Below are positions 54,582-54,712 of a stretch of 64,000 nucleotides of DNA, piece by piece. The position numbers were made by a program, and so were the translations under genes. The stretch lies in assembly GCF_003334765.1 (NCBI RefSeq), contig NZ_QOWT01000001.1; one strand, 5' to 3'. Below the pieces are notes generated by a model. That model worked only from the letters and a program-made list of their open reading frames with translations. It ran no database searches and was not told the DNA's origin. Each line of letters opens with the position of its first letter. Within the stretch, counting starts at the first letter, position 1. The DNA comes from Escherichia coli. GTDB taxonomy: Bacteria > Pseudomonadota > Gammaproteobacteria > Enterobacterales > Enterobacteriaceae.

Positions 54582-54589
54582 AAAAATTA

Positions 54590-54632
54590 ATAATAATTGA
54601 TATAACAATGATTCTTATTATCAATATTATGG
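54590..54632. promoter_or_regulatory. Fur box(es) upstream of ydiE
   Basis: taataattgatataacaATGATTCTTATTATCaatat closely resembles the Fur consensus GATAATGATAATCATTATC. Confidence 0.7.
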
Positions 54633-54712
54633 CTGACCAGAGCAAGCAGTAATTTGTTGAGAAGACAACAAGTTGCGCAGAAATGCCCATTCCGTCAGGA
54701 ATGGGCACGCAT

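Follow-up and report, generated by a model that had tools for sequence, protein, structure and literature searches.

The AT-rich spacer between aroH and ydiE (hemP) of Escherichia coli very probably carries the Fur operator of the ydiE promoter

Introduction

Does the AT-rich DNA that separates aroH from the small gene ydiE in Escherichia coli hold an operator for Fur, or does it resemble one only through its base composition? The question arose from a reading of a 64,000-nucleotide stretch of genomic DNA (the window, to which all positions refer), in which a Fur-box-like element was proposed from the letters alone to lie directly upstream of ydiE and to make its expression iron-repressed. Here, this original prediction is followed up with a weight-matrix scan, composition-matched controls, a comparison of orthologous promoters and the published record on Fur.

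We consider it very probable that the AT-rich region 54576-54634 serves as the operator for Fur at the ydiE (hemP) promoter. The finding as such is already known. Repression of ydiE by Fur has been on record since 2003, a prediction of the Fur cluster followed in 2007, and binding has since been mapped by ChIP-exo. The published E. coli K-12 site (McHugh 2003, Chen 2007, Gao 2023) is the same DNA in front of the same gene with the same regulation, and we find no difference from it. The present work adds an independent position weight matrix (PWM), a control for local composition and a phylogenetic footprint that includes a promoter assignment.

The aroH-ydiE locus

Positions 54300-54800 of the window are 100% identical to E. 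coli K-12 MG1655, and the aroH-ydiE region is found in 5423 of 5426 complete E. coli genomes. The interval originally singled out, 54582-54712, coincides exactly with the DNA that separates the aroH stop codon from the ydiE ATG, and the gene names and layout given with it were correct. From the RefSeq annotation and the list of open reading frames, the locus is composed as follows:

Ends at 54386, plus strand: selO (ydiU) (RefSeq annotation, ORF list)
54390-54581, minus strand: coding sequence of ydiE (hemP), the regulated gene, 63 aa (ORF list, RefSeq annotation)
54581-54579, minus strand: ATG of ydiE
54582-54712: aroH-ydiE spacer, 131 nt, downstream of aroH and upstream of ydiE
54713-54715, minus strand: stop codon of aroH

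The description of ydiE as HemP-like is borne out by a match of residues 27-63 to the Pfam family hemP (PF10636, E = 3.1e-15) and by the RefSeq name HemP. Its product also scores 136 bits against the NCBIfam equivalog PRK10183, for which the cut-off is 77, and structures have been solved (PDB 4ynx, deposited as 'Uncharacterized protein YdiE', and 2loj). PMC3212961 cites similar systems in Yersinia enterocolitica (hemPRSTUV) and Salmonella (ydiE), where, as here, a small PF10636 gene has a Fur box in front of it and is under repression by Fur. In Yersinia, hemP heads a hemin-uptake operon, whereas the gene stands alone after aroH in E. coli K-12 and in 78 of the 79 Enterobacteriaceae loci discussed below. 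An operon of the hemPRSTUV type was looked for around ydiE and not found, the K-12 neighbours being aroH upstream on the same strand and selO in convergent orientation. ydiE is a stand-alone HemP homologue.

On its other side, ydiE (minus strand) and selO (plus strand) converge with stop codons separated by 3 nt (54386-54390). Because this gap is so short, the 3' ends of the two transcripts must overlap, and the pair is a candidate 'excludon' (PMC12288877).

The spacer itself is accounted for by a likely terminator, a predicted promoter and the operator. Small open reading frames, one of them of 47 aa, cross it. An Rfam scan of 54300-54900 at E <= 1 returned no RNA family and thus gave no hint of a riboswitch or small RNA in the spacer.

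A Fur motif beyond local base composition

The similarity to a Fur box was evaluated in several registers. The element noticed originally, ATGATTCTTATTATC, is located at 54608-54622 on the plus strand. The surrounding AT-rich sequence, put at 45 nt in the original prediction, is indeed there and extends over 53 nt (54582-54634) with 85% A+T. The 7-1-7 motif TGATAATNATTATCA has its sole match with at most two mismatches in the 64 kb at 54609-54623; with up to three mismatches, eight matches are observed in the window against 2.6 expected. For the classical 19-mer GATAATGATAATCATTATC, 15 of 19 positions agree at 54604-54622, which is the best position in the window and its only match of at least 15, and 14 of 19 agree at 54610-54628; no match with three or fewer mismatches occurs in the window. 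The element had been called very close to the Fur consensus. Its similarity is above what chance provides, and in this respect the statement stands; for the classical register, with 15 of 19 positions, it was slightly generous. The ydiE site fits the 9-1-9 or 7-1-7 register better than the exact classical 19-mer.

A symmetric 19-bp PWM was built from 17 other Fur sites of E. coli K-12, with ydiE excluded. As training set we used the strongest-site coordinates of 17 Fur clusters in Table 4 of Chen et al. 2007 (PMC2189734), which were moved to NC_000913.3 by their distance to the gene start. This transfer agreed with the v2-to-v3 shift in 16 of 17 cases; the efeU site disagreed by 9 nt, and there the shift was applied instead. 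All 17 training sites align as AATGATAATnATTATCATT. Scanning the spacer with this matrix, the check proposed with the original prediction, gave a positive result. Two overlapping sites, 6 bp apart, reach 16.3 bits (centre 54610) and 16.1 bits (centre 54616). Weaker sites score 10.0 bits (centre 54598) and 9.7 bits (centre 54595) and are accompanied by several smaller positive values, giving nine or ten positive positions over 54576-54634. The operator is composed of the following parts:

54607-54625, minus strand: main 19-bp Fur site, 9-1-9, reading ATTGATAATAAGAATCATT on the ydiE strand (PWM 16.1 bits)
54601-54619, minus strand: second Fur site, reading AATAAGAATCATTGTTATA on the ydiE strand, shifted by 6 bp and overlapping the first (PWM 16.3 bits)
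54576-54634, no strand assigned: whole Fur site cluster and AT-rich operator, including the sites centred at 54595 and 54598 (PWM positives)

The main site matches the 7-1-7 motif at 12 of 14 positions, and its centre at 54616 corresponds to -35 relative to the ydiE ATG. Its promoter-proximal half-site is AGAATCATT (54607-54615).

How unusual are these scores? In leave-one-out scoring, the 17 training sites range from 17.2 to 27.7 bits, and the ydiE sites at about 16 bits come just below. They are at the weak end of bona fide Fur sites and clearly in their neighbourhood. Across the window, three sites of at least 16 bits are observed, compared with 0.12 in dinucleotide shuffles of the whole sequence. 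When the AT-rich 53 nt are shuffled by themselves, the P value is 0.01 for the top score, 2e-4 for the runner-up and <2e-4 for the total of all positive scores. Since local shuffles rarely reach the observed scores, the Fur signal does not merely reflect AT-richness.

Compared to the classical operators of E. coli (entC, fhuA, fepA-fes, cirA, sodA, fecI, ryhB, sufA and others), the ydiE element shares the 19-bp palindrome of the AATGATAATnATTATCATT type. Shared as well are the overlapping sites at 3-bp or 6-bp spacing, a position that for ydiE is predicted to be over the core promoter, and a distance of less than about 100 nt to the start codon. It differs from them in its promoter-distal half, which is degenerate and reads AAGAATCATT instead of ATTATCATT, and in its score of about 16 bits versus 17-28 bits.

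Other Fur-like sites in the window

The highest PWM match of the window is found elsewhere, at 52186-52204 (TTGGAGAATCTTTATCATT, 16.7 bits), and sits 12-30 nt inside the coding sequence of ydiV, whose ATG is at 52174. A ChIP-exo Fur peak of strain W3110 that has been assigned to ydiU/ydiV corresponds to window 52200-52212, and peak P54 of MG1655 corresponds to 52064-52094, about 100 nt further upstream (PMC10164565). The match is a possible Fur site in the 5' part of ydiV, an anti-FlhDC gene. Three further matches, at 14308 and 41915 (both inside long open reading frames) and at 45648, are regarded as chance occurrences; the part of the MG1655 ChIP-exo list that was covered has no peak at these positions.

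Predicted promoter and likely terminator within the spacer

The following promoter and terminator elements are predicted in the spacer:

54617-54622, minus strand: -10 hexamer GATAAT of the ydiE promoter, inside the Fur box (sequence; 73 of 77 orthologous promoters)
54640-54645, minus strand: -35 hexamer TTGCTC, 17 nt upstream of GATAAT (conservation of TTGCnn)
54597-54624, minus strand: alternative published promoter TTGATA-16-TATCAA, with its -35 inside the Fur box (Shimada 2014)
54684-54707, minus strand: stem-loop UGCCCAUUCC-UGAC-GGAAUGGGCA, followed by UUUCUG, just after the aroH stop codon (RNA fold)

In SELEX with the RpoD holoenzyme, Shimada et al. 2014 obtained a peak within the aroH>ydiE spacer, classified it as 'constitutive' and H-NS-associated, and proposed TTGATA-16-TATCAA as the promoter (PMC3946193). 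In an alignment of orthologous promoters anchored on the box, other genera have CATTGA in place of TATCAA, and because of this lack of conservation TTGCTC-17-GATAAT is preferred. A simple sigma-70 scan found a single match on the plus strand and none on the ydiE strand; TTGCTC-17-GATAAT escapes it because its consensus score of 8/12 is below the scan threshold. The centre of the box, 35 nt upstream of the ATG, overlaps either the predicted -10 GATAAT or the -35 of Shimada's promoter, so that Fur would overlap the core promoter under both assignments.

Downstream of GATAAT, the leader of about 35 nt is AT-rich, and reading the sequence before the ydiE ATG revealed no recognisable Shine-Dalgarno element. 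Its last part, 54582-54600 on the minus strand (…ATTATTATTAATTTTTATG), is almost pure A/T and is shared with the weaker Fur sites.

At the other end of the spacer, the hairpin following aroH is calculated to be stable (-21.9 kcal/mol, z = -3.9 relative to shuffles). As modelled, it is likely the aroH terminator and would separate aroH from the ydiE promoter. A terminator scan of the locus called nothing, because the U-tract (UUUCUG) is weak. Read-through past this strong, U-poor hairpin into the region of the ydiE promoter is conceivable. In other E. coli strains the hairpin varies in its loop and at an adjacent stem position, which changes GGAAUGGGCA to GGGAUGGGCA.

Conservation of the hemP box in Enterobacteriaceae

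Orthologous promoters were collected to see which parts of this arrangement are kept. A search with the YdiE protein retrieved HemP homologues in Escherichia, Salmonella, Citrobacter and Phytobacter. An alignment of 15 HemP homologues then led to 80 loci from species-representative Enterobacteriaceae genomes, of which 79 were usable (L017-L096). In all 79, the top PWM match of the roughly 5-kb locus is the hemP box, with a median of 24.2 bits. It lies at most 200 nt upstream of the called hemP ATG in 77 of the 79 loci, typically at -29 to -50. In about 15 loci the first-ATG rule made hemP start too early, so that the box came to lie at +2, +8 or +71 to +74; as the anchored alignment is collinear, these cases are start-codon miscalls and not other architectures.

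An ungapped alignment anchored on the box shows three conserved blocks between diverged flanks: cTTGCc, the box itself and GTTACATTGATTGTTATTT directly downstream. Among 77 unique orthologous promoters, GATAAT occupies box positions 4-9 in 73, and TTGCnn lies exactly 17 nt upstream in most. A score above 5 bits is reached by the site shifted by +6 in 91% of them and by additional sites at +18 and +24 in 30-38%. The order of aroH and hemP is kept as well: aroH directly precedes hemP in the same orientation in 78 of 79 loci, and selO is the convergent neighbour in only 38 of 79. Three marks of a Fur operator are observed at ydiE: a motif in excess of chance, overlapping sites at 6-bp spacing and conservation upstream of orthologues.

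The box itself varies in strength among genera. A near-perfect version, ATTGATAATGATTATCATT (28.7 bits), is found in Enterobacter, Lelliottia, Raoultella, Trabulsiella and others (for example loci L030, L039, L046 and L052), Salmonella and Citrobacter carry ATTGATAATAATAATCATT (22.1 bits), and Escherichia carries ATTGATAATAAGAATCATT (16.1 bits). Among these promoters, the E. coli operator is the most degenerate version of the hemP box. Within the species, most of the differences between K-12 and four divergent strains fall into the terminator hairpin and the promoter spacer. Their two strong sites show a single substitution, G to A (ATTGATAATAAAAATCATT), which raises the score (to 17.7 bits), and one of the four has a C to A change in a weaker flanking site.

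Two of the collected loci carry unexpected labels. L018 is a 417-bp contig attributed to Streptomyces sp. NTH33 that agrees with E. coli ydiE at 100% of the matched residues, and L038, attributed to Chryseobacterium sp. 18061, has an enterobacterial aroH-hemP locus that differs little from the one in Citrobacter sp. 18056. Their sequences suggest that both result from contamination or from wrong labels in public assemblies.

Published evidence for Fur binding and regulation

Published work shows that Fur occupies this site in vivo and that ydiE is derepressed in fur mutants. In Table 4 of Chen et al. 2007 (PMC2189734), ydiE is given a Fur cluster of 20.1 bits with 10 sites over 53 bp at v2 coordinate 1787602, or -35. 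With the ydiE ATG at v2 1787637 (v3 1789613), this coordinate is window 54616. For the regulation of ydiE by Fur, that paper cites the microarray study of McHugh 2003. In the same table, the column for 'experimental data' is blank for ydiE, with no footprint or gel-shift entry, and a literature search found no report of in vitro Fur binding to ydiE. Two other Fur papers do not mention the gene in their main text (PMC4676285, PMC10219339).

Binding in the cell was mapped by Gao et al. 2023 (PMC10164565). In MG1655, a ChIP-exo Fur peak at 1787605-1787617, 20-32 nt upstream of the ydiE ATG, corresponds to window 54613-54601. Similarly, W3110 has a peak at 1791295-1791307, 20-32 nt upstream of the ATG at 1791327. 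The same study places ydiE in the core Fur regulon across nine strains and in both Fur iModulons. The expression ratio of Δfur to wild type (log2) is +2.87 in MG1655, a 7-fold increase, and +8.14 in W3110, and ydiE is up in the mutants of eight of the nine strains (+2.2 to +8.1). BL21 is the exception, with ydiE down in Δfur (log2 -1.1) as the sole core Fur-regulon gene to behave in this way. Beyond E. coli K-12, ydiE of Salmonella Typhimurium, which has a predicted Fur site, is 7.4-fold up in Δfur (PMC3212961), and that paper points to previous evidence that both Salmonella ydiE and Yersinia hemP have Fur sites in front of them. In uropathogenic E. coli, ydiE is induced together with iron-uptake genes.

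The iron-repressed expression originally suggested is supported by these data, with derepression in fur mutants and ChIP-exo peaks on the box. Expression in a fur mutant, proposed then as an experiment, had already been published (MG1655 +2.87 and W3110 +8.1 log2, Salmonella 7.4-fold), and neither a low PWM score nor a lack of iron or Fur dependence is found.

Model and alternative explanations

From the arrangement of these elements we infer the promoter hexamers, the number of Fur dimers and the occlusion mechanism of the following model. When iron is sufficient, Fe2+-Fur dimers would occupy a minimum of two 19-bp sites that overlap and have their centres at -29 and -35 relative to the ATG, and weaker flanking sites would stretch the Fur cluster toward the ydiE start codon. 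Assuming a sigma-70 promoter of the form TTGCTC-17-GATAAT, the two strong sites (54625-54607 and 54619-54601) would cover its predicted -10 at 54622-54617 together with the region where transcription starts. Because of this coverage, bound Fur is expected to exclude RNA polymerase and keep ydiE off. When iron is scarce, Fur would lose its metal and leave the DNA, and ydiE would be transcribed with the rest of the iron-acquisition regulon.

Could the same observations be explained without a Fur operator? The spacer might be generic AT-rich promoter or curved DNA, such as a UP element or an H-NS-bound region, whose likeness to a Fur box is a by-product of composition. A+T makes up 85% of the stretch, the Fur motif is AT-rich in its own right, and the holoenzyme site in the spacer has been described as 'constitutive' and H-NS-associated (PMC3946193). 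Against this, shuffling the 53 nt, which keeps the dinucleotide composition, yields the observed best, second-best and summed scores only at P = 0.01, 2e-4 and <2e-4, the exact motif is kept at a fixed position across 79 loci, and ChIP-exo occupancy goes together with Fur-dependent expression in the Δfur data. We regard a purely compositional origin as extremely improbable; H-NS binding may coexist with Fur binding without replacing it. Still less credence can be given to an indirect iron response, acting through RyhB or another regulator and leaving the box functionally unused. Among the genes with altered expression in fur mutants, many are indirect targets (PMC2189734), BL21 responds with the opposite sign, and PMC3212961 lists published evidence that the Rcs system controls ydiE. 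Such a route is at odds with ChIP-exo peaks exactly on the box in two K-12 strains and with the status of ydiE as a core direct target in nine strains. As for RyhB, it rises in Δfur and represses its targets, a direction opposite to the observed derepression.

A different alternative accepts Fur binding and changes its role, with the cluster acting mainly as a roadblock or conditional terminator on read-through from aroH and not as a repressor of a dedicated ydiE promoter. That aroH and hemP are neighbours with the same orientation in 78 of 79 loci would suit such a role, and with its weak U-tract (UUUCUG) the aroH terminator makes read-through plausible. A dedicated promoter is nevertheless indicated by the conserved TTGCnn-17-GATAAT between terminator and gene and by the RNA polymerase holoenzyme SELEX peak in the spacer (PMC3946193). 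In wild-type cells aroH is expressed at 200-280 units and ydiE at 0-13, a difference of at least 20-fold (PMC10164565), from which we conclude that read-through contributes little; aroH also barely responds to deletion of fur (log2 -0.48 and +0.54). As the main function of the cluster, a roadblock is very improbable, yet given the weak U-tract it is possible as a minor add-on to promoter repression. Direct repression of the ydiE promoter by Fur is the reading that we retain.

Implications

The study of this spacer illustrates that a genuine regulatory element can be picked out of raw sequence by a reading that uses no tools. For experimental work, the 79-locus footprint provides a clean model of promoter and operator (TTGCnn-17-GATAAT) to guide reporter and mutational analyses.

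Some aspects are mildly new. A predicted promoter TTGCnn-17-GATAAT, embedded in the box, is conserved family-wide, and the adjacency of aroH and hemP is near-universal. This adjacency might couple an iron-regulated gene to the pathway of chorismate, the precursor of enterobactin, via Fur-modulated read-through. Also mildly new is the view of the E. coli operator as a degenerate derivative of a near-perfect palindrome that most other Enterobacteriaceae have kept. A more far-reaching version, which we put forward as speculation and consider rather unlikely, is that an ancestral near-perfect palindrome (ATTGATAATGATTATCATT) was remodelled in the lineage of Escherichia, Salmonella and Citrobacter, where an array that resembles direct repeats and is weaker (about 16-22 bits) retuned ydiE. 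If so, ydiE would be derepressed earlier or more gradually than high-affinity Fur targets, and the remodelled operator could leave room for strain-specific rewiring, for example the inversion seen in BL21.
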